A stretch of DNA of 64,000 bases, from positions 480,001 to 544,000 of the forward strand of contig CM000151.3 in NCBI GenBank assembly GCA_000004695.1, given 5' to 3'. The number at the start of each line of letters is the position of its first letter. The stretch's first letter is position 1. This document shows positions 888-60,470 of this stretch, in pieces. Position numbers and translations under genes: made by a program. This stretch comes from Dictyostelium discoideum (taxonomy: Eukaryota). The notes beneath the pieces were generated by a model. That model made no database searches and had not been told where the DNA came from. It saw nothing but the letters and a program-made list of their open reading frames with translations.

Positions 888-8472
<7,585 letters not shown>

Positions 8473-8533: not shown

Positions 8534-13615
<5,082 letters not shown>

Positions 13616-14359: not shown

Positions 14360-14366
<7 letters not shown>

Positions 14367-14452
14367 TGAAGTTCATTTAATGGTATACCATTCGGTGATT
14401 GATAACTTTCAAAATTGTTTTGAGTTTTAGTTGAGTTATTATTAATATTATC

Positions 14453-14532
<80 letters not shown>

Positions 14533-19835: not shown

Positions 19836-19920
19836 GTAAGAATTCTTATATTCTTGTGATTAATTATAATTATAATTTATTTTTAAATTATTAACTATTT
19901 TATTTATTTATTCATACTAG

Positions 19921-27390: not shown

Positions 27391-27456
27391 TTTTAATTAA
27401 AAAAAAAAATAACATTTAATTTTAATAATATTAATAAGTAAAATAACTAAATCCTT

Positions 27457-28093: not shown

Positions 28094-28175
28094 GTAAGGA
28101 TTATATTTTAATTGTATATATTTTAAATTAAAAATACACTCATTAATTAATTTTTTATTTAATTTATTTTATCAG

Positions 28176-34100: not shown

Positions 34101-36313
34101 ATGTTATTATTCTTTCAAGATCATCATTAAAATGGGAATTAGAATTATTAATTAATCAAACTAAACTATCAAATAATAATATTAAATTCCATTTCAAGAG
34201 TGTTGATGTTGGTGATAGTGAACAAGTTGATAATGCAATCAATGATATACTAAATGAAAACCAACAAATTAGAAATATTGATTCAATATTCCATTTTGCA
34301 TTTCAACAAATTGCATGTAAAGTTCAAGAAATCAATATGAAGCATTTAAATATTTCACATGGAGCAAAATCAATGGGTGCAATTAATTTACATAATCAAT
34401 CAATTAAACGTAATTGGAAATTAATTAATTTTGTTATGGCTTCTTCTGCACTTTCATTTATAGATTCAACAGATCAATGTACATATGCTTGTGCAAATAC
34501 TCTATTAGATTCATTTTCAAAATACAGAGTATCACTTGGATTACCATCAACTTGTATTAACCTTGGTTTAATTGAATCAACTGGTTTCGTTTCAAAGAAT
34601 GAATCGATTTCAGTATTTTTAGATGGCAATGGTATTATCCCAACACCAATCAATCGAGTTTTAGGTCTTTTAGATTTACAAATTCAAAATGCTAGTAAAT
34701 TCACAAATTCAATGATTTCAAATTTCAAACCCTCAAAATTTAAAAATAATCAACAAATATCATTATTTTTAAAATTTGACTACTTGATGAATTTAAAAAA
34801 CAATAGTGAACAAACTAAAAAAGAGAATACTGGAAATAAAAACATTGATGAATTATTCATTGAGAAAGTTTCAGAATTATTTTCAATGGATGAATCAAAA
34901 ATAAATAAAAATCTTAGATTAATCGATTATGGTGCAGATTCATTAATAATAGTTCAATTAAAGAATTGGATAGATAAAGAAATTGGTATAAATTTAATAA
35001 CAATTCAACAACTTCAAAATAATACAATTAATATTTCAATTAAAATGATATTAAATTCATTAATGAAAAACAATCAAAATAAATACCTACCTTCAAATAG
35101 AATTGATTATTGGAAGAATGAAATGAAATTTGAAGAATCTATTAAACCAATACCAAATGAAATTCGATCAAGAAATAATAACTCAGGAAAAATTATTTTA
35201 TTAACTGGTACAACTGGTTTTTTAGGTGGTTTCTTGCTATTCAATATGTTAAGATTAGATTCATGTAAATTAATTTATTGTTTGATTAGGAATAAAAGTA
35301 AATCAAGTTATCCATTAGATGAAATTATAAATAATTTAAAATATCATCAACTTTATGAAAAATTAAATAAATCACAAATTTCAAAGATTATACCGATTAT
35401 TGGTGATTTATCAATGAATAAACTTGGTCTTTCAAATGATGATTATGAAACAATTTCAAAAAATGTAAATTTAATTATCAATCCAGGTGCAGATATTAAT
35501 CAAAAATCAAGTTATCAAGATTGTAAATTAGTAAATGTTAATGGAGTAAAAGAAATTATTAAATTATCATTATCATCTTTAAAACAAAGGATACCAATTG
35601 TAAACTTTTCATCATTTTCAGTATTTTTCAATCAATCACTTGATAAGAATTTCGATGAATCAGTTTTACCATCAATTGATAATATTGATAATTTACCAAC
35701 AGAATATATGAAGAGTAAAGTTGTGGGAGAATACATTTTATTGGAAGCTTCAAAAAATTATAATATACCATCAATTTTAATTAGACCACCAAGTATATTT
35801 TTAAATCCAGAAACAGGTATTGGTCATAGTAGTGATCTCACTTTATTAATGATCCAATCATGTTATGAATTAGGTTATTGCCCAAATCAAATTTTAAATG
35901 GTTTTATTTTAATTAATACAATTACATGGTTATCAAATAATATTACAAATATTATAATGAATGATAATTGTTGGACAAATTCAAAAATGAATATTTATAA
36001 TGTACATGGTAAACAAATTCAATCAAGTTTAATAATTAAACCACTTGAAAAACATTTCAATTGTAAACAAATCAACAATAATGATTGGATTGATATGGTT
36101 AATAATTCAAATAAAAAATCATGTATTAAATTAAAATCATTCCATTCTTTAGAGAATATTTTTAAAAGTGAAAACAAAGGATATAAATCCAATGAAAGTC
36201 AAAGCATTTCATTATCAACCAAATCATTACTAGAATCAATGGGTTCATACAATACTGATCTTAAAATCACTGATAAAATGATTATTTCTCATATTAAACA
36301 TATTTTTAAATAA
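28176..36313 (+). CDS. PKS paralog B, exon 2: KS-AT-DH-cMT-ER-KR-ACP plus a C-terminal NAD(P)-binding thioester reductase (R) domain
   Basis: Intron 28094-28175 in phase 1. It carries the same domain signatures as A. About 410 extra residues follow the ACP. They begin GKIILLTGTTGFLGGFLL (the TGxTGFLG Rossmann motif of R/NRPS-type reductase domains) and run to the stop at 36313. Confidence 0.85.
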
Positions 36314-37044
36314 GCAATGTCTTTTTAATGTTTATAAAAGGAAAATAAATAAATTAACTAAATATATTAAATATTAAATATAATTAAAATATTAATATAA
36401 TTCTAAATTTGTGAGTAACTTTTATTTTTTTATTTTTATTTTACATTTTAATTATATTTGCCCCATGCCAAAAATAATTTTATTTTAAAAAGTGAGATAT
36501 TATTTATTAATATTTTAAATTTGTTAAAAATTTTATTAAATTATAACATCTCTTTTTAAAAAGTGAGAAATTGTGTGTGGTAAAATTTTTCCAAAAATAA
36601 CCAATTTTCGAGATTCTGAAAACAATTTAAAAACAATTCGTCAAGTTCCACCAAAATCGAGCAGGTCTGCAGAGTAAAAATTAAAATACTAAAAATAATA
36701 ATAATAAAATAATTAAAATAAAAAAATTAATAATAATGTGTGGAGATAAAATAAATAATTAATTTAATTTATTTTTAATGAAAAAAATTCTTAAAATACT
36801 ATTAAAAAATGAGAGATTGCTGGTTTTATAAAATTTATTAACTTCTTTTTTCCAGTGTTTATATAAAAAGGATTCTATTTTTTTTATATTTTAAAATTAA
36901 AAAATAATTATATTAAAAAGGTAAAAAATAAATTTTTCTGAAAAACTTTAAAATATATATATTATATATTAATAGTTTTTTAAAAAAAAGAAAAAAAATA
37001 AAAAATAAAAATTAAAAAGAAAAAAATAAAAAATAAAAAAAATC

Positions 37045-37265: not shown

Positions 37266-37499
37266 ATAATTCGAAATGGATTGAATTGGAACAAATTGAA
37301 ACAATTTTTTAATGTTTATAAAAATAAACTAAATTTAAAAATAATAAAATTTTTTAAAATTTGAACAGTCACTTTCATTTATTTTGAAATAAATTTTTTT
37401 TTTTTTTTTTTTCTGTAACAGAAGTGGTATGGTTTAGAAAGATTTGAAATATATCTCCCCATTTTAGAGTTTCTTCATTCTATTGATGTTGAATACATT

Positions 37500-38600: not shown

Positions 38601-39477
38601 AAATAATGATTTACCTTATTGCAATATTAAAAAAAAAAAAAAAAAAGTAGAAATTTAAAAATAAGGAGTATTATTATTATTTCTTTATTTCATAAAATTC
38701 GATTTTGAAAAAAAAAAAAATTAGATTTACCATATTAAATTTTCATTTTTTCCACAAATCGCCACACAAAAATTTTTTTTTTTTTTTTTTTAAAAAAAGG
38801 AGGGTTTTTTTCATGCAAAAGGGTGTTAAAATAAAAATAAAAATAAAAATAAAAAAATAAAAAAAAAAAAAAAAAATTAATTAGACCAGGCCATAAAATT
38901 TCATTTAATGAGATACGAATAAACAGGGGAATTTTTTTTCTTTTATTTTTTTTCCCACAACTAATTAGTTATTTTGCAATTAATAAATTATTGATATTTT
39001 TAATTTTATTACTATTAATAATTCTTAATTTCATAAATATTATACACAGTAACAAATTAAAAAACTTTAAGTTTTTATTTGGGAAAAAATTAATTATTTT
39101 CAAAGTTAATTTTTAAATTATTTACAAATAATTAATTATAATAATTCTTATAAAACAAATATTTTAAAAAAATTAAACCACTTTATTGATCCCATATGGT
39201 GGGTTTTGTAATTGGAAATATTGCAAACTTGTCTGGATTCTAAAATATCTCCTAATTTAAAAAGTTTTTTAAATTTTACCATAAAATGTATAAAAAAAGT
39301 GGTATTTAATAATTCTAATTAATATTCATTCTTTATATTCACTCACCTATTTTCTTAAATAAGGTTAGTTTTTATTTTTTTAAAAAAAAAATATATTTAA
39401 AAAACAAATATTAATTCGAATAAATTATTCTATATTATTCTATAGAGATATTCCTCAACTAAAATTACTAAATACCT

Positions 39478-40114
39478 ATGAATAATTTTAAGAATATAAA
39501 TTTAATAGAGAAAGGAGTTGCAATTGTTGGTATTGGATTTAGAATTCCTTCTGGTAATAATGAAAATTCAATCAGTTCACCAGATGATTTATTTAATAAT
39601 TTAAAGAATGGTTTTGATGGTGTTAGTAGTACATCAGAAAGATGGAGTGACAATTTTCATAAATTAGGTGAAATTAGTAGTCCAAATGCAGGTTTATTAC
39701 CATTTAATGAATGCAAATCATTCGATCCATTATTTTTTGGTATTAATCCATCCGAAGCACCATTGATTGATCCTCAACAAAGATTATTATTAAAATGTAC
39801 ATGGGAAGCATTAGAAGATGCATCTATTGATCCAATTTCAATTCGTGGTACAAATACTTCAGTTTTCATTGGTTCTTCAAATATTGATTATTTACATACA
39901 AATAAACATCAAGACTCAGTTTTAAAAAATGTAATAGCACAATCCACCTGTGCAATTTCAAATAGAATATCATATTGTTTCGATTTTAATGGTCCATCAT
40001 TATCAATTGATACTGCATGTTCATCATCATTAAATGCAATTTCTCAAGGTTATCATTCAATATTAAATGGTACTTCTGATATCTCAATTGTTGGTGGTGT
40101 AAATTTAATATTAG
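39478..40114 (+). CDS. PKS paralog C, exon 1 (KS N-terminus)
   Basis: ATG at 39478. The exon ends ...VNLIL then G|GTAAGG. Confidence 0.85.
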
Positions 40115-40186
40115 GTAAGGATTAAATATATATATTTTAAAAATACACTCATTAATTAAATTTAATTTATTTAAATATTTTACTAG

Positions 40187-43100
40187 ATGTTGAAACGACA
40201 AAAGCATATTCGTATTTAAGCATGTTAAGTAAAACACATGGTAAATGTAAAGCATTTGATGAAAGTGGTGATGGTTTTACACGTGGTGAATGTGCTGGTG
40301 TTGTAGTTTTAAAGAATTTACAAGATGCAGTAAAAGATGGTAATAGAATTTATTGTGTAATTAATGGTTCAAGTTCAAATGTTGATGGTAATGGTAATAT
40401 GGATAAAGTTAACTTTTATTCGCCATCAAAGCAATCACAATTTAATAATATTAATTCAGCATTTAAATCAACCAATGAAAAACTTTCAGTAAATGAAATT
40501 CAATATATCGAAGCACATGGTACTGGTACTAAAACAGGCGATCCAATTGAAACTGAAGCAATTTCAATGGCTTTTAAAAATAGAGATAAATCAACACCAA
40601 TTCTAATTGGTTCAATTAAAAGTAATATTGGTCATTGTGAAGCTGGTTCAGGTGTTGCATCATTAATCAAATGTTGTTTAATGTTTAAATATCAATGCTT
40701 TTTACCAAACATTCATTTCAAAAATCCAAATCCATTAATTAAATTCAATGAATGGAATTTAAAAGTTGTAACATCACCAATTCCATTCAACAGGAAAAAT
40801 GAAAAACCAGTTTCAATGATGATTAATAACTTTGGTGTAACAGGTTCAAATTGTTGTTTACTTATTTCAGAGTTTAAAAAACAAGATTATGAGCCATATG
40901 AAAACAACTACAAAAGTAATAATAAAAATATATTAATACCATTCTCAGCAAATTCATCAAATTCATTAAATCAATACCAATCAAAATTTAAAAATATAAT
41001 TAATAATCAATTCAATTTTATTGATTTTACCGCAAATCAAATTTATTCAAAATCAAATTATCTTTGTCAAAGATCAGTTATAGCTGCAAGTAATTCAAAT
41101 GAACTTTTTGAAAAAATTTTAAATAAAAAACAAATTCAAACTAAAAATTCAATCATTTCGAATATGTCATTCAAAGGAAAGAACCCAATTACAATTTTTG
41201 TTTTTTCAGGTCAAGGATCACAATATCCTAAAATGGCTTTAGAATTATATAATAATGAAGTAATCTTTAAGAAGTCAATTGATTTAATCAATTCAAAATT
41301 ATCAAAATACTATGGTTATTCAGTTTTAGAAAAATTAAGGTCGATAGGAGATGATGATACCACTTCCATTCATGATCCAAATATTTCACAACCAGCAGTG
41401 TGTATGATTTCAGTATCACTATTTGAATTGTATTGCCATTGGGGAGTAAATCCATCATTTATTCTTGGTCATAGTCTTGGTGAAATTTCAGCATCATATT
41501 GTTCTGGAATGATAGACTTAGATACATTCTGTTATACAGTTTATCACAGATCAATAGCGCAAACTAAAACACACGGTAATGGTAGAATGTTATCAATCAA
41601 TATCAGTGATGAAGAATTTAAATCAATGTATTCTCAAAAGTATCCACAAATTGAAATAGCATGTTATAATTCACCTCAATCAATTGTTGTGGCAGGTAAT
41701 GAATCAATATTAAATGAAATTTCAAAAGAATTAAAAGAAAAAGAAATTTTCACTGCAATGTTAGGTTCATTATCATCATTCCATACAAGTAGTCAGCAAT
41801 GTACAAAAGATAGTGTATTAAAACTAAATATTCAAAGCAATCAACCAAAAGTACCAATATTTTCAACAGTTACAACAAATTTATTTAATGAATCAAATCG
41901 ATTTAATTCACAATATGTTTACGATAATATTATTAATCCAGTTAGATTCACACAAACAATTTCAAATATTTATAAACATATCGAATCAAATCAATTAAAT
42001 AATGATATTGTATTCATTGAAATTGCACCACATCCAACATTATCATTTTATATTAAACAAATGGTACCATCAAGTTTAAATGAATCAGTTTCAGTTTATT
42101 CAGCACTTCACAAGAAAAAGAATGATGTCGAAGAGTTTCAACAAACCATTTCAAATTTATATTGTCAAAATGGATATAATATTAATTTTAAATGTCAATT
42201 TAATAATAAAAAATCAAATAAAAAAATTGATTTACCTCTTTACCAATGGAGTGACGAAACATACTTCGCTCAAACTCAAACACTTGAACAACATAGAGAA
42301 GAAGGACCACCAATTGACCATCTTGGTATATCAAACTCTTTTATTTCACCATTTAATAATTCATATAAAACATTAATCGATATAAACAATAAACCATTCC
42401 AATATCTTAAAGGTCATATGGTTAAAGGTAAATACTACTTCCCAGGTTGTGGTTATATCGATAATATTATTCAACTTTATAAAAATCAAGATATTTTTAT
42501 TAGTTTTATAGAATTTAAAACACCATTAATTTTAATTGAAGGTATCAATCAATGTTTACAAACAAACATTCAACAAACTGGTAAAAGTGAATATCGTGCA
42601 CAATTTCATTTCAAAGATCAAAAATCAAATCAATGGACTCAATCGTCAAATTCAAATTTCCAATTATTAGATCATGGTAATGATATACCATCAAATTATA
42701 ATATTGAAGAAATTATTAAAAACAAATGTAATTTAAGCAAATTAACAAAGAATGAACTTTATACACATATAAAATCAAAAACTGGTTTAAATTATACTGG
42801 AGTTTTTAAAGGTGTTACTGAATGTTATATAGGTGATAACTGTTCATTATCAGTTGTATCTTTAGAATCTCAAACAAACTCATTTTTAAATATACCAATA
42901 TTAGATACATGTTTACATGGAATGTTAGTATTAATAAATGATCAATGTCAAATTGTATTTGATAAAACCATTGGATTTAAATATTATTCATCAAACATAC
43001 CAGCATATTTCAAAGAAAATAAAGATTGTTTTTATGTTTATTCCCATTTAAAATCAAAGAGTGCTGATTCATACCATGGATCTATAATTGTAATGTTATC

Positions 43101-46100
43101 AGATGGTTCAGTTTTATATGAAATTCAAGAAGTTGTTTGTAAATCATTAATTCCAATCAAAGATTCACTTAAAATTGAATATCCAAATGATGAATTATAC
43201 AAAGTTCATTTACAATCAAAAGATTCTCAAATTCCAACACCATCATATTTCAAATCAATTATTTATGAAAATGATTCTTTCCATTCTATTGTAAATATTC
43301 CAGAAGATTTATTCAAATATATTTCAACATTGTTTTATAAAGATATTATAAAAAGATGTCCAGAAATTAATATCAATAAAATTAATTCTCATAGTGTTAA
43401 TGAAATTATTTCAAGTTTCAGTAAAATTTCAAAACACGAAAGATTATTTAGATTTGTATTTGAAACAATAAAAGAGAATGGTATTCTTAATAGTTTGGAA
43501 GAAAATGATGATGCTTATTTCGAATTTAATGAATTAGTTATAAAATCATCAAGAATTATTTCAAAATTATTATTTCCATTAGAAAATGATAATGATAATG
43601 AAGATTTACCTCAATCATTATTTCAAAATGGTTTAATGGATAAATTTTATAAATGCAACAATTTTAAAAAGAAAAATCAAATTATTTCACATGTTATAAA
43701 ACATTCAATTAAAGAGATTATTAATAATAATATTATAATTAGAATTTTAGAATTTGGAGGAGGTACTGCATCATTATCAGTTGAAGTTATTGGAGAAATC
43801 GTTACATTACTCCAAGAGAATCCAAATTATCAAGTTGAAATCGAATATACATGGAGTGATATTTCACCTGCATTCATAGCAGATGCAAAGAATAAAATCA
43901 ATAAAATCATTAATGATGCTGCTATAACAAATGGATTAAATGTTATTTATCTTCCATTAACAATTGGTGAATCATTGATAGAAACTCAATCAATTAAACC
44001 ATCATATTATGATTTCGTTATAATGTCAAATGTTCTTCATGTTGTTAAAGATATCAAACAAGTGGTAGAACAAATGTATCAATTGTTAACACCAAATGGT
44101 CAATTGGTGTTTGTTGAACCACCTTATAAATCAATTCTAATTGATTCAATAGTTGGTTCATTTGATCAATGGTGGTCATTCACTGATACTGATATTAGAA
44201 AAGATAGATGTGGTATGTCTCAACAAAGTTGGTATCAATTATTAAAGACATGTAATTTTAAAGACATTGTAATGTCTAAAGAATGCATTTTCGGATCAGT
44301 AATACAGGCACAAAAACCACCAATTTCTTTATTGAATTCTCAACCAAAACATGATAATATAATTATATATGGTGGTGGTAATAATTCACGTTTTTTTGAA
44401 AACATCAAATTATATTCAAATTCGAAAAGTTTAATTCAAATTGAAACTATTCAAGAATTTAATCAATTTATAAATAAATCTACAATTACAAACGATTCAA
44501 TCATTTATTTTATAAAAACATTAGAAACATTATCATTGGATAATTTTGCACAAATAACTCTTGAATATATTGAAATCAATAAAAAACTATTACAAATTAA
44601 TAGTTTATGTAAACATGTATTAATTGTTAGTGATTCAAGAAAAACTAACTATTTAGCATCATCAGTTGTTGGTGCTGCAAGATACTTTGATGAATTCCAA
44701 CAATTGAAATTACATACGTTAGATTTTGATTATGATTCAACTCAAAATTATATAAATTCAAAAAATAACAAAATGGTTCAATTCATTAATATATTAACAG
44801 ATTCAAAAACAAATGTTCATAAAGAAATGATTATAATTAATAATAAAGTATATTATGAAATAGTTCAAAAAGAGAAAAATCTAAAATTAAAATACAATTC
44901 AGAATCTTTTGAAAATCAAAATAATTTAATGTGTTCATTATCACCAAATTTAGAATATCAATTACAATCAAAACAAATTAAATTAAGAGATAATCAAGTT
45001 GAAGTTAAAACAATTGCAACTGGTATCAATTATAAAGATTATTTAAATTTTAGTGGTTCAAATAGCAACGGTGATGACAATACAGGTTTACCACAATTTG
45101 GATATGAATTTTCAGGTATTATAACAAGAGTTGGTAATAATGTAAAAGATTATAAAGTTGGTGATAATGTATTTGGTTTATCAAATTCTTGTACATCATC
45201 TCACATTGTTACAAATTTTAAAAATATTCAATTAAAACCTTCAAAAATAAGTCATATTGAAGCATCATCAATTCCAATTGATTATTTAGCATCATTTATT
45301 AGTTTATTTAATGTTGGTAGTTTAAATATTGAAGATAATGAATCAATTTTAATTCATTTAGGTAGTGATGGTTTTGGATTATCAACATTTGAAATATTAA
45401 AATGGAAAGGTTTTAAATCAAATTTATTCGTTACAGTAAATTCAGATGAAACTAAACAATATCTTCTAGATAGATATGGTGATTTTATTAGTGGAATTTA
45501 TTCAAACACAGATAAAAGTTATGTTACAGAAATAAAAAACGAATTAATTAAATTAGGTTCAAAAAAGAAAGGAGTAGATTTAATATTAAATACATTACCA
45601 AGTGATTTTATGGATTCAAATTTCGAGTTATTAACAAAGAATGCAAGAATAATTGATTTAACTTCAAATCATTTAAATCAAAGTGAATTTTTAAAAAATA
45701 TCAATTTTAAATATAATCATAGTTACCACAACTTTCAGTTATCATTATTTCAAAAAAATAAAATACAAAAATGTTTAAATGAAATTTCAAATGCTATTGA
45801 AAATGGAGAATTAAAAACTATTCCAATTAAAGAATTTACAAATTTAAATATTAAAGATGCCATCAAATACATTACCAACGGTAACATTGAAAAAATTACA
45901 GTTAGCCATGACCATGAAATTTATAGTGATATTATTTATAGATATTTAGATGAAAAAGAGTTTTCAATATTAAAATCAAATTATCAAATTAATTCAAATA
46001 ATTTAGGTAAAAATATATTAATTACAGGTCAATCAGGTATTATTTTAGAAATATTAAAATGGATCATTAAATATTCAAATATTAATACAATAGAAAATGT

Positions 46101-47091
46101 TATTATTCTTTCAAGATCATCATTAAAATGGGAATTAGAGTTATTAATTAATCAAACTAAACTATCAAATAATAATATTAAATTTCATTTCAAGAGTATT
46201 GATGTTGGTGATAGTGAACAAGTTGATAATGCAATCAATGAAATATTAAATGAAAATCAACAAATTACAAATATTGATTCAATATACCATTTTGCATTTC
46301 AACAAATTACATGTAAAGTTCAAGAAATCAATATGAAACATTTAGATATTTCACATGGAGCAAAATCAATGGGAGCAATTAATTTACATAATCAATCAAT
46401 TAAACGTAATTGGAAATTAATTAATTTTGTTATGGCTTCTTCTGCAATTTCATTAATAGGTTCAACAGATTTATGTACATATGCTTGTGCAAATACTCTA
46501 CTAGATTCATTTTCAAAATACAGAGTATCACTTGGATTACCATCTGCATGTATTAACTTTGGATCAATTGAATCTACTGGTTTCGTTTCAAAGAATGAAT
46601 CAGTTTCAGTATTTTTAGACGGTGGTGGTTTCCATCCAACACCAATCAATCAAGTTTTAGGCCTTTTAGATTTACAAATTCAAAATTCTGGTAAATTCAC
46701 AAATTCAATGCTTTCAAATTTCAAACCCTCAAAATTTAAAAATAATCAACAAATATCATTATTTCTAAAATTTGATTACTTGATGAATTTAAAAAACAAT
46801 AGTGAACAAACTAAAAAAGAGAATATTGGAAATAAAAACATTGATGAATTATTCATTGAGAAAGTTTCAGAATTATTTTCAACCGATGAATCAAAAATAA
46901 ATAAAAATCTTAGATTAATCGATTATGGTGCAGATTCATTAATAATAGTTCAATTAAAGAATTGGATAGATAAAGAAATTGGTATTAATTTAATAACAAT
47001 TCAACAACTTCAAAATAATACAATTAATATTTCAATCAAAATGATATTAAATTCATTAATGAAAAATAATCAATGTGGAAGGGAAATTTAA
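40187..47091 (+). CDS. PKS paralog C, exon 2 (KS-AT-DH-cMT-ER-KR-ACP); ends ...MKNNQCGREI* directly after the ACP
   Basis: Intron 40115-40186 in phase 1. It is more than 90% identical to paralog B through the ACP. No R domain is present. Confidence 0.85.
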
Positions 47092-47449
47092 CTTTTTTTT
47101 TTTCAGGGAAAAAAAGCGCTATTTTACCTACACTGCTTTGTGAAATTTAAATAAAAAACCAATATCTAATAATAATAATAATTAATTTATATTTTTAATA
47201 TGAATGTTTTAATATAATTTATTTAAATAATTAAATTCTAAAAATAAAACTTTTGATTTAAAAAATAAAAAATAAAATAAAAAATTCAAAAAACAGCTCT
47301 ACAAATGTCAAAAGAAAAATTTCTAAAGATATTTCACGGTTTTTTACGAGCTCGAAAATATCTTAGGCGCCTACACAAAAAAATTTTATTTTAATAATAT
47401 GACAACATCACAAAATAAATTTACAGAAAAAAAAAAAAATAAAAAAATA

Positions 47450-47477
47450 AATTAGAGATGCCGGAAATGAAAAAAAA

Positions 47478-47516
<39 letters not shown>

Positions 47517-48348
47517 GCAAAAAAAAAAAAAAAAAAAAAAAAATTTGGTTTTTTTTTTTTTTAATTTTTTTTTTTTAATTTTTTTTTTTATTTTTTTTTT
47601 AAATTAATTTATATTTATTTTAGGAGTCAATCCATTCATCTAAATCTATTTTCTCAACTGCTTTTGGAGTAACTGTTATTGAAAAAATTATATTTATTTG
47701 AGACTGTTGAGAATGTTTTTTTGTTTTATTTTTTTATAAAATATTTAATATACCATCTGGATGAATATTTTTTTATAAAATTTAATTAATTAAATTCTCT
47801 CTTTTTTTATTTATAAACAAAACTATAGAACCAACTGACAACATCTTCATACTCCATTGGAATTCTTCGGCACTCAGAGATTAAAATTAAATGATCCCAT
47901 CATTTTACCATTAGAAGATGGATCGTTTAAACTTGTTTTTGGTTATCCACCTTTTGATATTGAAATAATTGAGGTTAAATATTTGGGTGATGGTAGAATT
48001 GGAATAAGATACCATGTCTTATTACCATCAAGAGAAGATCTAGAAACAATAGTTGGTTATGATTATTCATCCAGATGGTATATTAAATATGATTGTCTAC
48101 CACTCAAAACCACAAGCTTTCACTTTCTTCATCACTCTGCCTCTACAAAAGAACAAGAAAAATATCAAAGTTGTAAAATCGATATTGAAAAAGATATAAA
48201 ATATTTTTCAATAACAGTTACTCCAAAAGCAGTTGAGAAAATAGATTTAGATGAATGGATTGACTCCTAAAATAAATATAAATTAATTTAAAAAAAAAAT
48301 AAAAAAAATAAAAAAAATAAAAAAAAACAATTTTTTTTTTTTTTTTGC

Positions 48349-48390
<42 letters not shown>

Positions 48391-48412
48391 CATTTCCAGC
48401 GTCTCTATTAAA
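47450..48412. mobile_element. foldback / TIR element of about 960 bp with about 250-bp terminal inverted repeats
   Basis: The left arm is about 47450-47700 and the right arm about 48180-48412. The inner 64 bp (47622-47687 GGAGTCAATCCATTCATCTAAATCTATTTTCTCAACTGCTTTTGGAGTAACTGTTATTGAAAAA) is the exact reverse complement of 48204-48267. The outer ends TAGAGATGCCGGAAATGA and TCATTTCCAGCGTCTCTA match with two mismatches. AAATTTGGCAAAA and TTTTGCCAAATTT are mirrored. Confidence 0.6.
47857..48270 (+). other. 137-codon open frame inside the foldback element (no in-frame ATG)
   Basis: The track ORF starts at TTG. The frame opens after the TGA at 47836 and contains no ATG codon. Its last 22 codons are encoded by the right inverted-repeat arm. 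It may be an internal exon, or a frame left open by the repeat; it is not supportable as a protein gene. Confidence 0.15.
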
Positions 48413-48834: not shown

Positions 48835-50170
48835 AAATAAACTATTGTAGTATACAATTAGTATGTTATTTTTATTTATTTATTTTAGGTTTTTTAGTTT
48901 TTGTGAATTTAAAATGGTATGTTATTTTAGATGTGGTAATTAATAATTAATTGGTAGTGTAATTGTTGGAATTGGTTCATTTGTGTTTATGCTCCATTCT
49001 TTTTTAAATTTTTTGATGGTTTCGGACCATTGGGTTTCTTTTTGAGTTTTTGTGAGGTTGTTTTTAATTGAGTATTGGTTAAAGTTTGATAATGTTCTTG
49101 AATATTCCAATCTTATTAGCTTGTGCCATTTTGATTTTAATATATCATAATCTAGTGTTGTGTTGTTTATTTGGTTGTTCCAATTGTCAATTGATTGAGT
49201 TATATTGATGTCAAATAATGATTTGCATAACCATATTTGGTGAATAACTAATGAGATTATGTTCCAATATGCATGTGTTCTGACTAGATCAAGATTTGTT
49301 TATATAATTCCAGTTGAATCTGTATTTTTTATATTGTGCGTTTTCTGCTAAATGAAAATTAATATTGATAGTTGGATCTGGTTTAAATGCTTTGTTGTTT
49401 GTTTGTGGTTTATAAATGAGTGTGTATAATTTTGTTGTTTGGTTTTTTGTTAGTGACCAGTTTTTGTTTCCATTGCAATTTTTATATATAAAATATTTTA
49501 ATTTGTCGTGGTTTATGAAGTTGATTGTGTGCTGACAATTGAAAAACAAATGACCATAGGGATCATTATTCATTTCATTGTTGCAAATGGGGCAAACTTT
49601 GTTGTGTAGATGATTAATTGGAAGACATCTAGCATGGAATCTTTGCATTGTATCACGGCCTTTTGGATCTTTTAATTTTTGAATTTTGACAAATAGTTGG
49701 TCGTATGTGTATTTCCATAATAGTTGTATTGATTGTTGGTGCGAAGTAAGAAGTATATCTGAATATTTCTTGCCAACATAGTCTTTTGATTTACATTGGT
49801 GATTGTTGAGTATTGTCGAGTAGATTTCTTTGAGTGTTGGTGGTAGTGAAATATTATTTGTGGTTAATGTTTGAGAGGTTTGGTTTTTTGTTAATATTGG
49901 TTGTAGGGTTTGAACTTTATCTTTTAGATGTCCAATTTGAGTTGCATAGTTTTCCCATTCTTTTTTGATTTTTATAAGGTATGGAGAAGAGATTGATTTG
50001 TTGATGATTTGATCCATCCAACTTATCATGTATATTGAATTGTTTGCAGATTTATGCTTTTGTAAAAATCTGTTGTATATCCAAATCTTTTGAGCAACTT
50101 GTCGTAATTGTATATTCCACATACCCCAACCACCTTCTTTTAATGGTGTTTCAACAAATTGAAACAAATT
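48835..50170 (-). mobile_element. 5'-truncated non-LTR (LINE/TRE-like) retrotransposon 3' fragment: ORF2 post-RT region plus a C-terminal CCHC zinc-knuckle
   Basis: The minus ORF 49289-50167 contains PLKEGGWGMWNI, the conserved post-RT E-GG-LG motif of L1-type ORF2. It also contains CPICNNEMNNDPYGHLFFNC (CX2CX11HX4C, the ORF2 C-terminal zinc-knuckle). The segment is richer in G+T than the flanks. A T13 run at 48821-48833 is consistent with a poly(A) tail on the minus strand. Confidence 0.55.
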
Positions 50171-50980
50171 GAAACAAGTTTTTTTAATGTTTAAAAAAGG
50201 AATCTCTAAAAATAACCTATATTTAAAAATAATAAAATTTTTTAAAATTCCAACTTTTTAAAAATGGTTTTTTTATTTTTTAATTGAAAAAAAAAAAAAA
50301 ATTAAACCCAATTAAACAAAATTTTTTTTCTAATTAATCAAACATGATATTATTTTCTCCAAATTTAAAATATTTTTAAATTATTCCACATCATAAAATG
50401 TATACATATGTGTATTTTATTGTGAAAAATCCCCTTGTTAATGAAGGGAAATTTTTTTTGAAATTTCACTACAAAAAGATTTGGTATGAAAATTTGAAAA
50501 AGACAAAAAAAAAAAAAAAATTAAAATTAAAAAAAATATCTTCACGTGGGAATTTATTTTCAGAAAAACCTTTTTTTTTTTTCATTTTTTATTTTTTTTT
50601 ATTTTTTAAATTCTTAATAATAAATAAAATGACAGTAAAATAAACATAAAAACAAAAACCAAATTTACAGACTTTATTTTTAAAATCCCCAACATGATAC
50701 CGATTATCTCCAAATTTAAAATGTTCCACACTATATAAAAAAAAGTGGTACTTGATAATTTTAATTAATATTCATTTTTTTTTATTGGTTCACCTATTTT
50801 TAACTGCTTCTTACTATAAAAAATAATAGTAAAAAAAAAAGTAAATAATGCAAGTTTCTAAAAAAAAAAAAAAATATAAATTAAAAAAAAAAAAAACAAA
50901 ATTTAATTTTAAAATTAATTTAGAATTATTTCTGGTAATAACTAATAGAGATATTCCTCAACTAAAATAACTAAGCACCA

Positions 50981-51617
50981 ATGAATAATTTAGAAATTAT
51001 AAATTTAATAGATAAAGGTGTTGCAATTGTTGGGGTGGGGTTTAGAATTCCTTCTGGTAATAATGAAAATTCAATTTGTTCACCAGATGATTTATTTAAT
51101 AATTTAAAGAATGGTTTTGATGGTGTTAGTAGTACATCAGAAAGATGGAGTGACAATTTTCATAAATTAGGTGAAATTAGTAGTCCAAATGCAGGTTTAT
51201 TACCATTTAATGAATGCAAATCATTCGATCCATTATTTTTTGGTATTAATCCATCCGATGCTCATCAGATTGATCCTCAACAAAGATTATTATTAAAATG
51301 TACATGGGAAGCATTAGAAGATGCATCTATCGATCCAATTTCAATTCGTGGTACAAATACTTCAGTTTTCATTGGTTCTTCAAATATTGATTATCAACAT
51401 ATAAATAAACACCAAGACTCAGTTTTAAAAAATGTAATAGCACAATCTGCCTATGCTGTTTCAAATAGAATTTCATACTGTTTCGATTTTAATGGTCCAT
51501 CATTATCAATCGATACTGCATGTTCATCATCATTAAATGCAGTTTCTCAAGGTTATCATTCAATATTAAATGGTACTTCCAATATGTCAATTGTTGGTGG
51601 TGTAAATTTAATATTAG
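50981..51617 (+). CDS. PKS paralog D, exon 1 (KS N-terminus)
   Basis: ATG at 50981. The exon ends ...VNLIL then G|GTAAGA. Confidence 0.85.
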
Positions 51618-51691
51618 GTAAGAATTACATTTAAATATATTATATATAAAATACACTCATTAATTAATTTTTTATTTAAATATTTTACTAG

Positions 51692-54600
51692 ATGTTGGAA
51701 TGATAAAAGCATATTCGTATTTAAGCATGTTAAGTAAAACACATGGTAAATGTAAAGCATTTGATGAAAGTGGCGATGGTTTTACACGTGGTGAATGTGC
51801 TACTATTGTAGTTTTAAAAAATTTACAAGATGCAGTTAAAGATGGTAATAGAATTTATTGTGTAATTAATGGCTCAAGTTCAAACGTTGATGGCGGCGGT
51901 CATATGGATAAAGTTAACCTTTATTCACCATCAAAGCAATCACAATTTAATAATATTAATTCAGCATTTAAATCAACCAATGGTAAACTTTCAATTAATG
52001 ATATTCAATATATCGAAGCACATGGTACTGGTACTAAAACAGGCGATCCAATTGAAACTGAAGCAATTTCAATGGCTTTTAAAAATAGAGATAAATCAAC
52101 ACCAATTCTAATTGGTTCAATTAAAAGTAATATTGGTCATTGTGAAGCTGGTTCAGGTGTTGCATCATTAATCAAATGTTGTTTAATGTTTAAATATCAA
52201 TGCTTTTTACCAAATATTCATTTCAAAAATCCAAATCCATTAATTAAATTCAATGAATGGAATTTAAAAGTTGTAACATCACCAATTCCATTCAACAAAA
52301 GAATTAATGAAAAACCAGTTTCAATGATGATTAATAACTTTGGTGTAACAGGTTCAAATTGTTGTTTACTTATTTCAGAATTTAAAAAACAAGATTATGA
52401 ATCATATGAAAACAACAACAACAACAAAAGTAATCATAAAAATATATTAATACCATTCTCAGCAAATTCATCAAATTCATTAAATCAATACCAATCAAAA
52501 TTTAAAAATATAATTAATAATCAATTCAATTTTATTGATTTTACCGCAAATCAAATTTATTCAAAATCAAATTATCTTTATCAAAGATCAGTTGTAATTG
52601 CAAGTAATTCAAATGAACTTTTTGAAAAAATTTTAAATAAAAAACAAATTCAAACTAAAAATTCAATCATTTCGAATATGTCATTCAAAGGAAAGAACCC
52701 AATTACAATTTTTGTTTTTTCAGGTCAAGGATCACAATATCCTAAAATGGCTTTAGAATTATATAATAATGATGAAATTTTTAAGAAGTCAATTGATTTA
52801 ATCGATTCAAAATTATCAAAGTACTATGGTTATTCAGTATGGGGGAAGTTAACAACGATCAAAGATGATGACTTGACCTCAATACATGATCCAATTTTCG
52901 CACAACCAGCACTGTGTATGCTTTCAGTATCACTATTTGAAATATATTGCCATTGGGGAGTAAATCCATCATTTATTCTTGGTCATAGTCTTGGTGAAAT
53001 TTCAGCAGCATATTGTTCTGGAATGATCGATTTAGATACATTCTGTTATACAGTTTATTACAGATCAATCGCCCAATCTAAAACAAATGGTTGTGGTAGA
53101 ATGTTATCAATTAATATCAGTGATGAAGAATTTAAATCAATGTATTCTCAAAAGTATCCACAAATTGAAATTGCGTGTTATAATTCACCTCAATCAATTG
53201 TTGTGGCAGGTAATGAATCAATATTAAATGAAATTTCGAAAGAATTAAAAGAAAAAGAAATTTTCACTGCAATGTTAGGTTCATTATCATCATTCCATAC
53301 AAGTAGTCAGCAATGTACAAAAGATAGTATATTACAACTAAACATTGAAAGTAATCAACCAAAAGTACCAATATTTTCAACAGTTACAACAAATTTATTT
53401 AATGAATCAAATCGATTTAATTCACAATATGTTTATGATAATATTATCAAACCAGTTAAATTCACACAAACAATTTCAAATATTTATAAACATATCGAAT
53501 CAAATCAATTAAATAATGATATTGTATTCATTGAAATTGCACCACATCCAACAATATCATTTTATATTAAGCAAATGGTACCATCAAGTTTAAATGAATC
53601 AGTTTCAGTTTATTCAGCACTTCACAAGAAAAAGAATGATGTCGAAGAGTTTCAACAAACCATTTCAAATTTATATTGTCAAAATGGATATAGTATTAAT
53701 TTTAAATGTCAATTGGAAAATAAAAAATCAAATCAATCAATAAATTTACCACTTTACCAATGGGATGATGAATTATACTTCGCTCAAACTCAAACACTTG
53801 AACAATATACAAAAGAAGGACCACCAATCGATCATCTTGGTCTATCAAACTCTTATTATTCACCATTTAAAAATTCATATAGAACATTTATTGATATAAA
53901 TAATAAACCATTCCAATATCTTAAAGGTCATATGGTTAAAGGTAAATACTACTTCCCAGGTTGTGGTTATATCGATATTATTATTCAACTTTATAAAAAT
54001 CAAGATATTTTTATTAGTTTTATTGAATTTAAAACACCATTAATTTTAATTGAAGGTATCAATCAATATTTACAAACAAACATTCAACAAACTGGTAAAA
54101 GTGAATATCGTGCACAATTTCATTTCAAAGATCAAAAATCAAATGAATGGATTCAATCATCAAATGCAAATTTCCAATTATTAGATCATGGTAATGATAT
54201 ACCATCAAATTATAATATTGAAGAAATTATTAAAAACAAATGTAATTTGAGCAAATTAACAAAGAATGAACTTTATACACAAATAAAATCAAAAACTGGT
54301 TTGAATTATACTGGTGTTTTTCAAGGTGCTACTGAATGTTATTTAGGTAATGATTGTTCATTATCAGTTTTATCTTTAAAATCTCAAACAAATTCATTTT
54401 TAAATATACCAATTTTAGATACATGTTTACATGGAATGTTAGTATTAATAAATGATCAAAGTCAAATTGTATTTGATAAAGCCATTGGATTTAAATATTA
54501 TTCATCAAACATACCATCGGATCTTAAAGAATATAAAGATAGTATTTATGTTTATTCCAATTTAAAACCAAAAAATGCTGATTCATACCATGGATCTATT

Positions 54601-57600
54601 ATAGTAATGTTATCAGATGGTTCAGTTTTATATGAAATTCAAGAAGTTATTTTTAAATCATTAATTCCAATCAAACATTCACTTAAAATTGAGTATCCAA
54701 ATGATGAATTATACAAAGTTCATTTACAATCAAAAGATTCTCAAATTCCAACGCCATCATCATTCAAATCAATTATTTATGAAAATGATTTCTTCCATTC
54801 TGCACTTAATATTCCAGAAGATTTATTCAAATATATTTCAACATTATTTTATAAAGATATTATAAAAAGATGTCCAGAAATTAATATCAATAAAATTAAT
54901 TCTCATAGTGTTAATGAAATTATTTCAAGTTTCAGTAAAATTTCAAAAAATCAAAGATTATTTAGATTTGTATTTGAAACAATAAAAGAGAATGGTATTC
55001 TTAATAGTTTGGAAGAAAATGATGATGCTTATTTCGAATTTAATGAATTAGTTATTAAATCATCAAAAATTATTTCAAAATTATTATTCCCACTAGAAAG
55101 TGATAATGATAATGAAGATTTACCTCAATCATTATTTCAAAATGGTTTAATGGATAAAATTTATAAATGCAGTTATTTAAGAAAGAAGTATCAAATGATT
55201 TCACATGTCATTATACATTCAATTAAAGAGATTATTAATAATAATATTATAATTAGAATTTTAGAATTTGGAGGAGGCACTGCGTCATTATCAGTTGAAG
55301 TTATTGGAGAAATCGTTGCATTACTTCAAGAGAATCCAAATTATCAAGTTGAAATCGAATATACATGGAGTGATATTTCACCTGCATTCATAGCAGATGC
55401 AAAGAATAAAATCAATAAAATCATTAATGATGCTGCTATAACAAATGGATTAAATGTTATTTATCGTTCATTAACAATCGATGAATCATTGCTTGAAAAT
55501 CAAGCAATTAAACCATCATATTATGATTTCGTTATAATGTCAAATGTTCTTCATGTTGTTAAAAATATTAAACAAGCTGTAGAACAAATGTATCAATTGT
55601 TAACACCGAATGGTCAATTGCTATTTATAGAACCACCTTATAAATCAGTTCTAATCGATTCAATCATTGGTTCATTTGAACAATGGTGGTCATTCACTGA
55701 TACTGATATTAGAAAAGATAGATGTGGTATGTCTCAACAAAGTTGGTATCAATTATTAAAGACATGTAATTTTAAAGACATTTTAATGTCAAAAGAATGC
55801 ATCTTTGTTGGGTCAGTAATACATGCACAAAAACCACCAATTTCTTTATTGAATTCTCAACCAAAACATGATAATATAATTATATATGGTGGTGGTGGTA
55901 ATTTAAGTTTTGTAGAAAACATCAAATTAGATTCAAATTCAAAAAGTTTAATTCAAATTGAAACTATTCAAGAATTTAATCAATTATTAAGTCAATCAAC
56001 AATTACAAATGATTCAATAATTTATTTCATAAAAACATTAGAAACATTATCATTGGATAATTATAAACAAATAACTCTTGAATATATTGAAATCAATCAA
56101 AGACTATTACAAATCAATAGTTTATGTAAACATGTATTAATTGTTAGTGATTCAAGAAAAACTAACTATTTAGCATCATCAGTTGTTGGTGCTGCAAGAT
56201 ACTTTGATGAATTCCAACAATTGAAATTACACACATTAGATTTTGATTATGATTCAACTCAAAATTATATAAATTCAAAAAATAACAAAATGGTTCAATT
56301 CATTAATATCTTGGTGGACTCCAAAACAAATGTTCATAAAGAAATGATTATAATTAATAACAAAGTATATTATGAAATAGTTCAAAAAGAGAAAAATCTA
56401 AAACTAAAATACAATTCAGAATCTTTTGAAAATCAAAATAATTTAATGTGTTCATTATCACCAAATTTAGAATATCAATTACAATCAAAACAAATTAAAT
56501 TAAGAGATAATCAAGTTGAAGTTAAAACAATTGCAACTGGTATCAATTATAAAGATTATTTAAATTTTAGCGGTTCAAATAATAATAATGGTGATGACAA
56601 TACAGGTTTACCACAATTTGGATATGAATTTTCAGGTATTATAACAAGAGTTGGTAATAATGTAAAAGATTATAAAGTTGGTGATAATGTATTTGGTTTA
56701 TCAAATTCTTGTACATCATCCCACATTGTTACAAATTTTAAAAATATTCAATTAAAACCTTCAAACATAAGTCATAACGAAGCATCATCAATTCCAATTG
56801 ATTATTTAACATCATTTATGAGTTTATTTAATGTTGGTAGTTTAAATATTGAAGATAATGAATCAATTCTAATTCATTTAGGTAGTGATAGTTTTGGATT
56901 ATCAACATTTGAAATATTAAAATGGAAAGGTTTTAAATCAAATTTATTCGTTACAGTTGATTTGGACGAAACTAAACAATATCTTCTAGATAGATATGGT
57001 GATTTTATTACTGGAATTTATTCAAACACAGATAAAAGTTATGTTACAGAAATAAAAAACGAATTAATTAAATTAGGTTCAAAAAAGAAAGGAGTAGATT
57101 TAATATTAAATACATTACCAAGTGATTTTATGGATTCAAATTTCGAGTTATTAACAAAGAGTGGTAGAATAATTGATTTAACTTCAAATCATTTAAATCA
57201 AAGTGAATTTTTAAAAAATATCAATTTTAAATATAACCATGGTTACCACAACTTTCAGTTATCATTAATTCAAAAAAATAAAATACAAAAATGTTTATAT
57301 GAAATTTCACATGCTATTGAAAATGGAGAATTAAAAACTATTCCAATTAAAGAATTTACAAATTTAAATATTAAAGATGCCATCAAATACATTACCAACG
57401 GTAACATTGAAAAAATTACAGTTAGTCATGATCATGAAATTTATAGTGATATTATTTATAGATCTTTAGATGAAAAAGAGTTTTCAATATTAAAATCAAA
57501 TTATCAAATTAATTCAAATAATTTAGGTAAAAACATATTAATTACAGGTCAATCAGGTATTATTTTAGAAATATTAAAATGGATCATTAAATATTCAAAT

Positions 57601-58599
57601 ATTAACACAATTGAAAATGTTATTATTCTTTCAAGATCATCATTAAAATGGGAATTAGAATTATTAATTAATCAAACTAAACTATCAAATAATAATATTA
57701 AATTTCATTTCAAGAGTGTTGATGTCGGTGATAGTGAACAAGTTGATAATGCAATCAATGAAATATTAAATGAAAATCAACAAATTACAAATATTGATTC
57801 AATATACCATTTTGCATTTCAACAAATTACATGTAAAGTTCAAGAAATCAATATGAAACATTTAGATATTTCACATGGAGCAAAATCAATGGGTGCAGTT
57901 AATTTACATAATCAATCAATTAAACGTAATTGGAAATTAATTAATTTTGTTATGGCTTCTTCTGCACTTTCATTAATAGGTTCAACAGATCAATGTACAT
58001 ATGCCTGTGCAAACCTATTATTAGATTCATTTTCAAAATACAGAGAATCACTTGGATTACCATCTGCTTGTATTAACCTTGGGTCAATTGAATCAACTGG
58101 TTTCGTTTCAAAGAATGAATCAATTTCAGAATTTACAGATGGCATTGGTTACGTTCCAACACCTATCAATCTAGTTTTAGGTCTTTTAGATTTACAAATT
58201 CAAAATGCAGGTAAATTTACGAATTCAATGCTTTCAAATTTAATATCATCAAAATTTAAAAATATTCAACAAACATCATTATTTCTAAAATTTGATTACT
58301 TGATGAATTTAAATGACAACAGTGAACAAACTAAAAAAGAGAATATTGGAAATAAAAACATTGATGAATTATTCATTGAGAAAGTTTCAGAATTATTTTC
58401 AACGGATCAATCAAGAATAAATAAAAATCTTAGATTAATTGATTATGGCGCAGATTCATTAATAATAGTTCAATTAAAGAATTGGATAGATAAAGAAATT
58501 GGTATAAATTTAATAACAATTAAACAACTTCAAAACAATACAATTAATATTTCAATCAAAATGATATTAAATTCATTAATGAAAAATAATCAAATATAG
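51692..58599 (+). CDS. PKS paralog D, exon 2 (KS-AT-DH-cMT-ER-KR-ACP); ends ...MKNNQI* directly after the ACP
   Basis: Intron 51618-51691 in phase 1. The domain signatures are as in B and C. After the stop, 58640-58690 still matches the extreme 3' end of the B R-domain coding sequence (CATTACTAGAAT(T/C)ATCAAC...GATCTT), which marks an internal deletion. Confidence 0.85.
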
Positions 58600-58971
58600 A
58601 TGACAATAATAATACATACAATAGATATTAACCCAATGAAAATCAAAACATTACTAGAATTATCAACAGATAATGGGTGATCTTGAAATTTTTTATTTAA
58701 ATAAGATTCAAATTTTACTTTGCGTTTTTTTTATTTAATATTTTTAGATTTGGGTAGTTTTGGACATTATAAAATAAAAAATCTAAATCTAAATAAAATA
58801 AAAAATACAAATCTAAATTATTCTTTTTTATAAAAAAAAAAAAAAAAAAAAAAGTCAAATCAACATAAAAACATCTTCAGACATTATTTTTAAAATTGAA
58901 TTTATAAAAAAAATTTTATTTATAAAAATAAAATTTTTTCTCAATTAATATAGATATTTCAAAACTAAATT

Positions 58972-60470
58972 ATGAATAATTTTAAAAAATATAAATTTAA
59001 TAGATAAAGGTGTTGCAATTGTTGGGGTGGGGTTCAGAATTCCTTCTGGTAATTATGAAAATTCAATTAGTTCACCAGATTATTAAATTTAATAATTTAA
59101 AGAATGGTTTTGATGGTGTTAGTAGTACATCAGAAAGATGGAGTGACAATTTTCATAAATTAGGTGAAATTAGTAGTCCAAATGCAGGTTTATTACCATT
59201 TAATGAATGCAAATCATTCGATCCATTATTTTTTGGTATTAATCCATCCGATGCTCATCAGATTGATCCTCAACAAAGATTATTATTAAAATGTACATGG
59301 GAAGTATTAGAAGATGCATCTATTGATCCAATTTCAATTCGTGGTACAAATACTTCAGTTTTCATTGGTTCTTCAACTATCGATTATCAACTGTTTCGAT
59401 TTTAATGGTCCATCATTTTCAATGCATGTTCATCATCATTAAATGTTGTTTAATGTTTAAATATCAATGCTTTTTACCAAATATTCATTTCAAAAATCCA
59501 AATCCATTAATTAAATTCAATGAATGGAATTTAAAAGTTGTAACATCACCAATTCCATTCAACAAAAGAAATAATGAATTACCAGTTTCAATGATGATTA
59601 ATAACTTTGGTTTAACAGGTTCAAATTGTTGTTTACTTTTAACAGAATATAAAAAACAAGATTATGAATCATATGAAACTATCTACAAAAATGATAATAG
59701 TAAAAATATATTAATACCATTTTCAGCAAATTCAACAAATTCATTAAATCAATACCAATCAAAATTTAAAAATATAAATAATAATCAATTCAATTTTATT
59801 GATTTTACCGCAAATCAAATTTATTCAAAATCAAATTATCTTTATCAAAGATCGGTTGTAATCGCAAGTAATTCAAATGAACTTTTTGAAAAAATTTTAA
59901 ATAAAAAACAAATTCGAAATAAAAATTCAATCATCTCAAATATGTCATTCAAAGGAAAGAATCCAATTACAATTTTTGTTTTTTCAGGTCAAGGATCACA
60001 ATATCCTAAAATGGCTTTAGAATTATATAATAATGAAGTAATCTTTAAAAAATCAATTGATTTAATCGATTCAAAATTATCAAAGTACTATGGTTATTCA
60101 GTATGGGAGAAGGTAAAAAAAATCAAAGATTATGATACTACTTCCATTCATGATCCAACTATTGTACAACCAGCAGTGTGTATGTTTTCAGTATCATTAT
60201 TTGAATTGTATTGCCATTGGGGAGTAAATCCATCATTTATTCTTGGTCATAGTATTGGTGAAATTTCAACATTATATTGTTCTGGAATAATCGATTTAGA
60301 TACATTTTATCACAGATCAATAGCACAAACTAAAACACACTGTAATGGTGGGCATCCACTGATATTGATATTAGGAAAAATAGATGTAGTATGTCTCAAC
60401 AAAGTTGGTATCAATTATTAAATAACAGTAATTATAAAGACATTGCAATGTGCATGCTAAAATTAAAAAG
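58972..60470 (+). pseudogene. PKS relic (paralog E): KS-N fragment, KS-C/AT fragment and cMT fragment fused by internal deletions, with frameshifts
   Basis: ATG at 58972 followed by an immediate frameshift ([11 protein letters not shown]). The recognisable [32 protein letters not shown]...IDYQ jumps to [24 protein letters not shown]... (KS C-terminus) and runs through the AT domain GHSIGE. It then jumps to a DIRKDRCGMSQQSWYQLL-like fragment of the cMT region. Multiple stops are present. Confidence 0.8.

Follow-up and report, generated by a model that had tools for sequence, protein, structure and literature searches.

The fungal highly-reducing polyketide synthase (HR-PKS) LovB retains a condensation domain as the vestige of an NRPS module that was lost. 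Most of the C-terminal release/extension machinery of this iterative enzyme has been truncated, and the leftover betrays the ancestral architecture. Gene relics and partial pseudogenes of duplicated families are comparable, since in these a short, collinear and frame-broken remnant lies beside an intact paralogue and is visible only against the undeleted copy. In Dictyostelium discoideum, a C-terminal thioester reductase (TR, here also called the R domain) is present in 19 of the 40 PKSs (DdPKSs), and it is already on record that adjacent, highly homologous DdPKS genes form groups and that neighbours within them differ in the presence of TR (PMC12828403). One synthase devoid of this domain, Pks5, with the architecture KS-AT-DH-MT-ER-KR-ACP, makes dictyodenes and is a working enzyme (PMC9618038). 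Neither a TR relic downstream of pks8 nor an account of how a TR-less member originated was found in the searchable literature.

The PKS gene described here as D, probably pks8, is followed by a remnant that can be set beside both of these systems. Like LovB, D is an iterative HR-PKS in which the C-terminal machinery is mostly truncated and what is left reveals the ancestral architecture, but the LovB leftover is translated and functional whereas that of D is untranslated, decayed DNA past the stop codon. With the gene relics and partial pseudogenes it shares the short, collinear and frame-broken form and the intact paralogue nearby; unlike in those, the deletion in D spared the gene, as the terminal catalytic domain was lost while the upstream multidomain open reading frame (ORF) is complete, and the outcome is a change of architecture. 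The relic is an ordinary molecular fossil of a well-known kind and discloses no new mechanism or function.

The window analysed is a stretch of 64,000 nucleotides of the D. discoideum genome (GenBank assembly GCA_000004695.1, contig CM000151.3, positions 480,001 to 544,000 of the forward strand), to which all coordinates refer and which has a base composition of 76% A+T. To the right of the PAP2 gene, it contains a head-to-tail series of near-identical, highly-reducing type I PKS genes, for which the letters A to F of the preliminary description were retained. The genes are as follows.

937-8472: family-B DNA polymerase gene
8534-13615, minus strand: myotubularin-like gene
14360-15460, minus strand: PAP2 gene
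19181-26804: PKS A, from the ORF listing and Pfam domains
27457-36313, plus strand: PKS B, with exon 1 at 27457-28093 and exon 2 at 28176-36313, from ORFs and Pfam domains
39478-47091: PKS C
50981-58599, plus strand: PKS D, with exon 1 at 50981-51617, an intron at 51618-51691 and exon 2 at 51692-58599
about 58790-60451: E', a gutted PKS pseudogene downstream of D
from about 61330: PKS F, where upstream homology begins, with its ATG near 61450 and the gene extending past the edge of the window

A single short intron interrupts the KS region of each PKS gene. After splicing, the products of A, B, C and D are 2512, 2924, 2513 and 2514 aa long, which we take to be the lengths of the products of D. 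discoideum pks5, pks6, pks7 and pks8, respectively. The array from A to D and onward probably corresponds to pks5-pks8 and onward; by the same reckoning B is probably pks6 and D probably pks8, names that we infer. A and C share 87.6-87.9% nucleotide identity, the published value for pks5 and pks7 being approximately 88%, and A displays the same KS-AT-DH-MT-ER-KR-ACP architecture as Pks5 (PMC9618038). A decayed PKS locus in D. cf. discoideum (L001) is unrelated to this array.

Pfam profiles identified KS, AT, DH, MT, ER, KR and ACP domains in each of A, B, C and D. When these four are compared, an R domain follows the ACP in B only, while A, C and D end right past the ACP. The R domain of B matches NAD_binding_4 (PF07993) with 177 bits (E = 4.2e-52, cut-off 20.1) over residues 2340-2573 of the exon-2 ORF and carries the glycine-rich motif LLTGTTGFLGG. 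Its catalytic Y-x-x-x-K is formed by Y218 and K222 (YMKSK), both invariant with respect to three other dictyostelid R domains, as seen in an alignment of B with one sequence from D. purpureum and two from D. cf. discoideum (43-62% identity). A search of D with the PF07993 profile gave no match, and tblastn with the B R region found nothing downstream of D, C or A. The D exons join at TAG/GTAAG...TAG/ATGTTG, and the spliced ORF, in which the N-terminal half of KS is encoded by exon 1, is free of internal stops from KS through AT, DH, MT, ER and KR to ACP. D is an intact R-less gene, its product probably being a functional synthase.

At the nucleotide level, the alignment of the B and D gene bodies (94.3% identity over 7.65 kb) ends at B 35078 and D 58594, and resumes at B 36174 and D 58618. 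The following features were recognised around this interruption.

35078-36173, plus strand: stretch of B without a counterpart in D, comprising the ACP-R linker and most of R; its left end falls within 35078-35101 and its right end within 36148-36182
58594-58617, plus strand: junction zone or filler of 24 nt, ATATAGATGACAATAATAATACAT, which is assigned to neither side of the deletion with confidence
58597-58599, plus strand: TAG stop of D, inside the filler and one codon past the last B-homologous codon (..MKNNQ-I-stop)
58618-58690, plus strand: relic, collinear with B 36174-36268 on the plus strand, in the same orientation and order
58691-58706, plus strand: possible extension of the relic, with TTTTTATTTAAATAAG facing ATATTTTTAAATAAG of B, the latter holding the B stop codon; this segment alone is not significant

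In the relic, 59 of the 68 aligned bases are identical to B and there are four indels. It starts 19 nt past the TAG stop of D, and its counterpart lies 46-140 nt before the B stop codon. The strings quoted in the preliminary description were located at D 58641-58689 and at B about 36205-36270. That description had taken the counterpart to be the last 60 bp or so of B, which is correct in that 3' coding sequence of the B R domain is involved; however, the matched segment is longer than this and lies further upstream of the stop codon. Nor does the match begin immediately after the D stop, as 18 nt of unassignable sequence intervene.

As the match is short, with 68 aligned bases in DNA of 76% A+T, its evaluation depends on the scoring adopted. 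In a naive local alignment (+2/-3) it was equalled by 29 of 300 dinucleotide shuffles and was not significant, and in low-stringency blastn (blastn-short) it was lost among comparable AT-rich noise. Both procedures are unsuited to DNA of this composition, and therefore a log-odds matrix built on the composition of the window was used instead. With this matrix the relic scored 39.4 bits and was the best non-self match of the 121-nt D flank over 1110 tiles on both strands, the next unrelated match reaching 25.9 bits; it is thus about 13 bits above all else in 128 kb, and it sits exactly at the collinear position. A score of 39.4 bits was attained by none of 2000 dinucleotide shuffles (Gumbel p ~4e-7) and, against the same B target, by none of 2068 real control segments of 121 nt (Gumbel p ~5e-6). 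The significance was stable over five gap-penalty settings, and blastn with dust, run spacer against spacer, gave E = 4.8e-7. A dot-plot of the D 3' flank against the B 3' coding end had been proposed as the check on the deletion, and the collinear match is there, at 39.4 bits and p ~1e-6. Words containing G or C, namely CCAATGAAA, ATTATCAAC, AATGGG and TGATCTT, are shared by the D relic and B in the same order. In a display alignment of D 58560-58712 with B from which the gap was removed, 119 of 145 columns are identical. An alignment in which extending a gap cost almost nothing strung 5-10-mers together across the R domain in a meaningless way and was discarded.

Beyond the relic the similarity fades. 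A convincing counterpart of the last 45 nt of the B coding sequence was not found in D, and D 58685-58800 gave background scores only (15-17 bits) against B 36260-36700 and 36314-37000. As there is no significant homology past the relic into the B 3' flank, retention of the ancestral stop and UTR in D is not demonstrable. The relic has a core of 73 nt and possibly measures about 90 nt with the continuation.

The nature of the relic follows from what its counterpart encodes. B 36174-36268 specifies KGYKSNESQSISLSTKSLLESMGSYNTDLKI, which includes the C-terminal motif of the R domain, S..STK.L..S.G; S386, T389, K390, S395 and G397 of this stretch do not vary among four dictyostelid R domains. Since the matched segment encodes an invariant reductase motif, the relic is reductase coding DNA and not a pre-existing UTR shared by the two genes. 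Being a piece of the reductase fold, it excludes that R was never acquired by D, and the change is a loss. In this respect the proposal that D ancestrally possessed an R domain is borne out by a significant, collinear relic of the conserved R C-terminal motif.

The relic is far decayed as a coding sequence. All three frames contain stops. NE.Q.I, K.LLE, MG and DL.I can still be recognised, distributed among the three frames and in the order that they have in B. Compared with B, about 13% of the positions are substituted (9/68), and the indels measure 4, 12, 2 and 12 nt. The G+C content is 26%, which is coding-like, versus 12% in the rest of the D flank; this lends weak support, as 23% of intergenic 73-nt windows equal or exceed the relic. 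The relic is now non-coding and presumably part of the D 3' UTR. Its mismatches (9/68) exceed those at B-D four-fold sites (38/601; Fisher p = 0.044) and do not differ from those in the intron (7/74; p = 0.6), the local divergence at the 3' ends of the genes being 8-9%. These comparisons point both ways as to the age of the deletion relative to the coalescence of the gene bodies.

The junction was located with a split-alignment scan. Placements over D 58594-58625 fell within about 4 bits of each other, and the B sequence missing from D amounted to 1067-1085 bp, in agreement with the loss of about 1.1 kb first estimated. The same scan does not sustain the view that the domain was precisely excised: the junction is ambiguous over this interval and contains the 24-nt filler, and the leftover shows four more indels and is interrupted by stops whichever frame is read. 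In B the lost segment is bracketed by two imperfect copies of a direct repeat of 22-24 nt, TGAAAA(A)CAA..ATAAAT(A)CC, at 35064-35087 (plus strand) and 36169-36190; the two copies have shared k-mers about 1104-1105 nt apart and match by eye at about 17 of 22 positions. This repeat could have served as the microhomology guiding the deletion. The D junction, with its 24 nt of extra sequence, is no clean hybrid of the two B repeat copies.

Taken together, it is very probable that the D ancestor carried an R domain and that a deletion removed the ACP-R linker and most of R, leaving the relic. Large losses are seen elsewhere in the array as well, in E' (detailed below). The deletion would have been non-homologous or microhomology-assisted and would have put filler DNA at the junction. 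As the original 3' end of the gene would have been kept, D would still have had a 3' UTR and a polyadenylation region that work, and the result would be an intact R-less synthase whose product release is no longer reductive. The leftover R sequence then decayed neutrally as non-coding DNA, while gene conversion would hold the gene bodies at about 94% identity up to the end of homology; conversion proceeding up to the first heterology would explain the sharp boundary. B is the single R-bearing paralogue in the window, and the match fits a relic of D's own R domain and one of a neighbour's R domain alike.

The flanks of A and C bear on whether this loss was private to D. The homologies B-C, B-D and C-D end at B 35077/8, C 47073 and D 58593/4, that is, at the same position within 1 nt, and that of A and B ends at B 35085, such that the ends of A, C and D fall within about 10 nt. 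The three proteins all stop at position 87-88 of the 95 positions of the ACP profile. Unrelated events would not be expected to give A, C and D so common an end of their homology to B, which hints that more may have happened than one private deletion in D. Two features of the region behind C are relevant.

47074-47103, plus strand: sequence following the end of the C homology to B and D (after AATCAA), made of 19 nt with the C stop codon and then a T11 run
48943-50146, minus strand: part of the ORF2 of a multi-copy non-LTR retrotransposon, lying in the C-D spacer, without the reverse-transcriptase part and with one frameshift

The ORF2 fragment is 93-98% identical to at least eight AX4 proteins encoded on several chromosomes, two of them with PF00078. 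The T11 run, which is poly-A on the minus strand, begins 19 nt past the C break, yet it is 1.8 kb away from the ORF2 fragment, and no target-site duplication was identified for the element in the C-D spacer. No R remnant was detected downstream of A or C or in the B-C and E'-F spacers at either the protein or the DNA level, scores being at the level of shuffled sequence. The A and C flanks have no similarity to the D filler, the relic or the B R region, and the 19-nt C tail scored at the shuffle mean against the D filler. Thus, the statement that C has no such remnant stands, both by tblastn and at the DNA level. The further statement that its break is different is upheld by the missing remnant and by the retrotransposon-bearing flank; it is weakened by the homologies ending at the same nucleotide, so that a shared first event is possible.

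Identity along A-D is mosaic. B is the outlier over alignment columns 1200-1600, where C, D and A are alike; over columns 1800-2200 B and D are alike and C differs from them; and over columns 400-800 the closest pair is B and C. Such a pattern is best read as a mark of gene conversion between members of the array. Given the common end point of A, C and D and these mosaic gene bodies, independent losses are not proven. The shared sharp boundary is possibly an effect of gene conversion on the gene bodies; independent breaks may possibly have been focused at the linker by selection against a truncated ACP or half an R domain; and a single old deletion followed by remodelling of the flanks is possible as well.

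In its full form, the last of these would have R lost once, in the ancestor of A, C and D, with D keeping the scar, the A flank decayed, the C flank replaced in association with the retrotransposon and the gene bodies converted with B. The coincident ends of homology (B 35077/8 for three pairs and 35085 for A-B), the common stop of the R-less proteins within the ACP profile, the mosaic identity, which attests to exchange among members, and the retrotransposon fragment in the C-D spacer all agree with such a history. Against it, the A and C flanks are at shuffle level when compared with the D filler, the relic and the B R region, and the divergence of C from D sets in precisely at the junction, which demands that a second event struck that same nucleotide; moreover, selection against a damaged ACP or half an R domain could have focused independent breaks at the linker. 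A single ancestral loss is regarded as unlikely.

An inter-paralogue deletion was also considered, running from the end of the D ACP into R-domain 3' sequence of a member further downstream; 1.1 kb plus at least one gene unit would have been lost, and D need not have had an R domain. The scar records the junction and not the length lost, and the private sequence between D and E' is only about 200 nt (58594-58790) before the upstream homology of E' begins, compared with 0.65-3.9 kb in other spacers, so this deletion is not to be dismissed outright. Kilobase deletions are indeed common in the PKS array, as indicated by E', which, relative to D, misses two segments of about 0.76 and about 2.6 kb and all of the 3' 2.8 kb; such multi-kilobase losses, the recombination and gene conversion evident in the array, and the excess of relic mismatches over four-fold sites (p = 0.044) are all in line with it. 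On the other hand, it is less parsimonious than an intragenic loss of 1.1 kb, the relic divergence is no different from that of the intron (p = 0.6) or from the local 8-9%, and no feature of the window calls for a lost unit. Describing the deletion as internal to the gene is thus the parsimonious reading, with the qualification that a deletion reaching the R domain of a paralogue further downstream gives the same junction; the latter is considered quite improbable. Finally, chance resemblance in AT-rich, low-complexity DNA, with a D lineage that never had R and a gain of R by B at the ACP boundary, would find room in the naive scoring (29/300 shuffles) and in the many comparable matches of low-stringency blastn, and would give a one-step reason for the shared break of A, C and D, but it is so improbable as to be set aside in view of a composition-aware score 13 bits above all else in 128 kb at the collinear position, p ~1e-6 against shuffled and real controls, the ordered words CCAATGAAA, ATTATCAAC, AATGGG and TGATCTT, and the conserved R-domain motif encoded by the segment.

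The preferred reading, loss of the R domain from the D ancestor by a deletion of about 1.1 kb, fixes the direction of one architecture change among the DdPKSs, as TR was lost and not gained. The array members are evidently under remodelling, through deletions in the kilobase range, the insertion of a transposon and gene conversion. It is conceivable, though doubtful, that the ACP-TR linker is a recurrent, perhaps selected, breakpoint that switches off reductive release, or else that one ancient TR deletion spread through the array, its boundary being held sharp in A, C and D by continuing gene conversion with TR-bearing neighbours; if either were true, the D relic would be the sole surviving witness of the loss of TR in about half of the 40 DdPKSs. 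B and D constitute a natural matched pair, 94% identical over 7.6 kb and differing essentially in TR, which could serve to examine the role of TR in chain release and in the identity of the products.

The four tandem type I PKS genes of the array (A to D, of which only B carries a C-terminal thioester-reductase (R) domain) were compared over 19135-26803 (A), 27395-35085 (B), 39457-47073 (C) and 50960-58596 (D). Identity among them was found to be mosaic along the gene length, with the closest pair differing by segment. Over alignment columns 1200-1600 (~52056-52451 in D), A is 96% identical to C and D, and elsewhere its identity is ~75-78%. As judged from the aligned sequences, the pattern indicates probable gene conversion or recombination within the PKS array.

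Measured against B, the stops of the R-less genes A, C and D all fall within ~10 nt of one position, where the ACP profile ends, and a TAC (Tyr) codon of B is aligned with the TAA of A.

Ends of the R-less genes and the segment of B compared with them
26802-26804, end of A
47074-47091, end of C
58594-58599, end of D
35077-35086, segment of B

This common stop position may be due to a shared event, to selection, or to boundaries set by gene conversion.

Codon positions 1+2 diverge by 3.8-4.5% in the pairs B-D, B-C and C-D, close to the 5.6-6.5% at four-fold degenerate sites (B-D was measured over 28178-35077 in B and 51694-58593 in D), and the paralogues would thus be weakly constrained or subject to diversifying selection, or else gene conversion would blur the pattern. 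Between B and C or D, homology starts just ~21 nt 5' of the start codon (27436, 39457 and 50960 in B, C and D, respectively); thus the promoters are much more diverged than the gene bodies, which are 94% identical. This contrast fits concerted evolution restricted to the coding regions.

Directly 3' of D lies E', a gutted PKS pseudogene with an in-frame stop in its exon-1 region.

Retained parts of E'
58790-60451, whole pseudogene
58790-59387, upstream region and exon 1
59427-60349, KS-C/AT piece, matching 52158-53085 in D
60344-60451, 108-nt piece, matching 55682-55789 in D

Because the retained pieces map to separated segments of D, E' has two internal deletions, of ~0.76 kb and ~2.6 kb, and has also lost the final 2.8 kb.

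The spacers contain a repeated motif, GTCTTTTTAATGTTTATAAAAGGAA, which occurs 6 nt past the stop of B and again 984 nt downstream, where 36322-36337 and 37306-37321 are identical over 16 nt; a third site is in the C-D spacer.

Features of the spacers
36319-36345, 37306-37330 and 50178-50202, sites of the motif
47857-48270, 137-aa ORF in the C-D spacer
48943-50146, minus strand, partial ORF2 of a multi-copy non-LTR retrotransposon in the C-D spacer, sharing 93-98% identity with several AX4 proteins

The recurrence of the motif may represent a target-site duplication flanking a ~1 kb insertion in the 3' flank of B. Homology is clear between segments 37284-37408 and 50157-50281 (67 bits), which shows the spacers to be of common ancestry. 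The 137-aa ORF had no Pfam match, and its 3' end is copied as a 250-nt inverted repeat of 85% identity (47453-47699 and 48190-48407).

A long (GTT)n run at ~8545-8720, directly 3' of the DNA polymerase gene, lies within the 3' part of a myotubularin-like ORF on the minus strand and would be translated there into a poly-Asn tract; such repeat runs are typical for Dictyostelium.

A decayed PKS was found at a separate locus of Dictyostelium cf. discoideum (GCA_054859205.1, JBTAPH010000036.1; locus positions 7206-10994), where a gene model of 791 aa contains no more than pieces of KS, ER, KR and ACP, and a 271-aa R-domain fragment comes after it as a separate unit. Deletion-riddled PKS genes therefore occur elsewhere in the genus as well.
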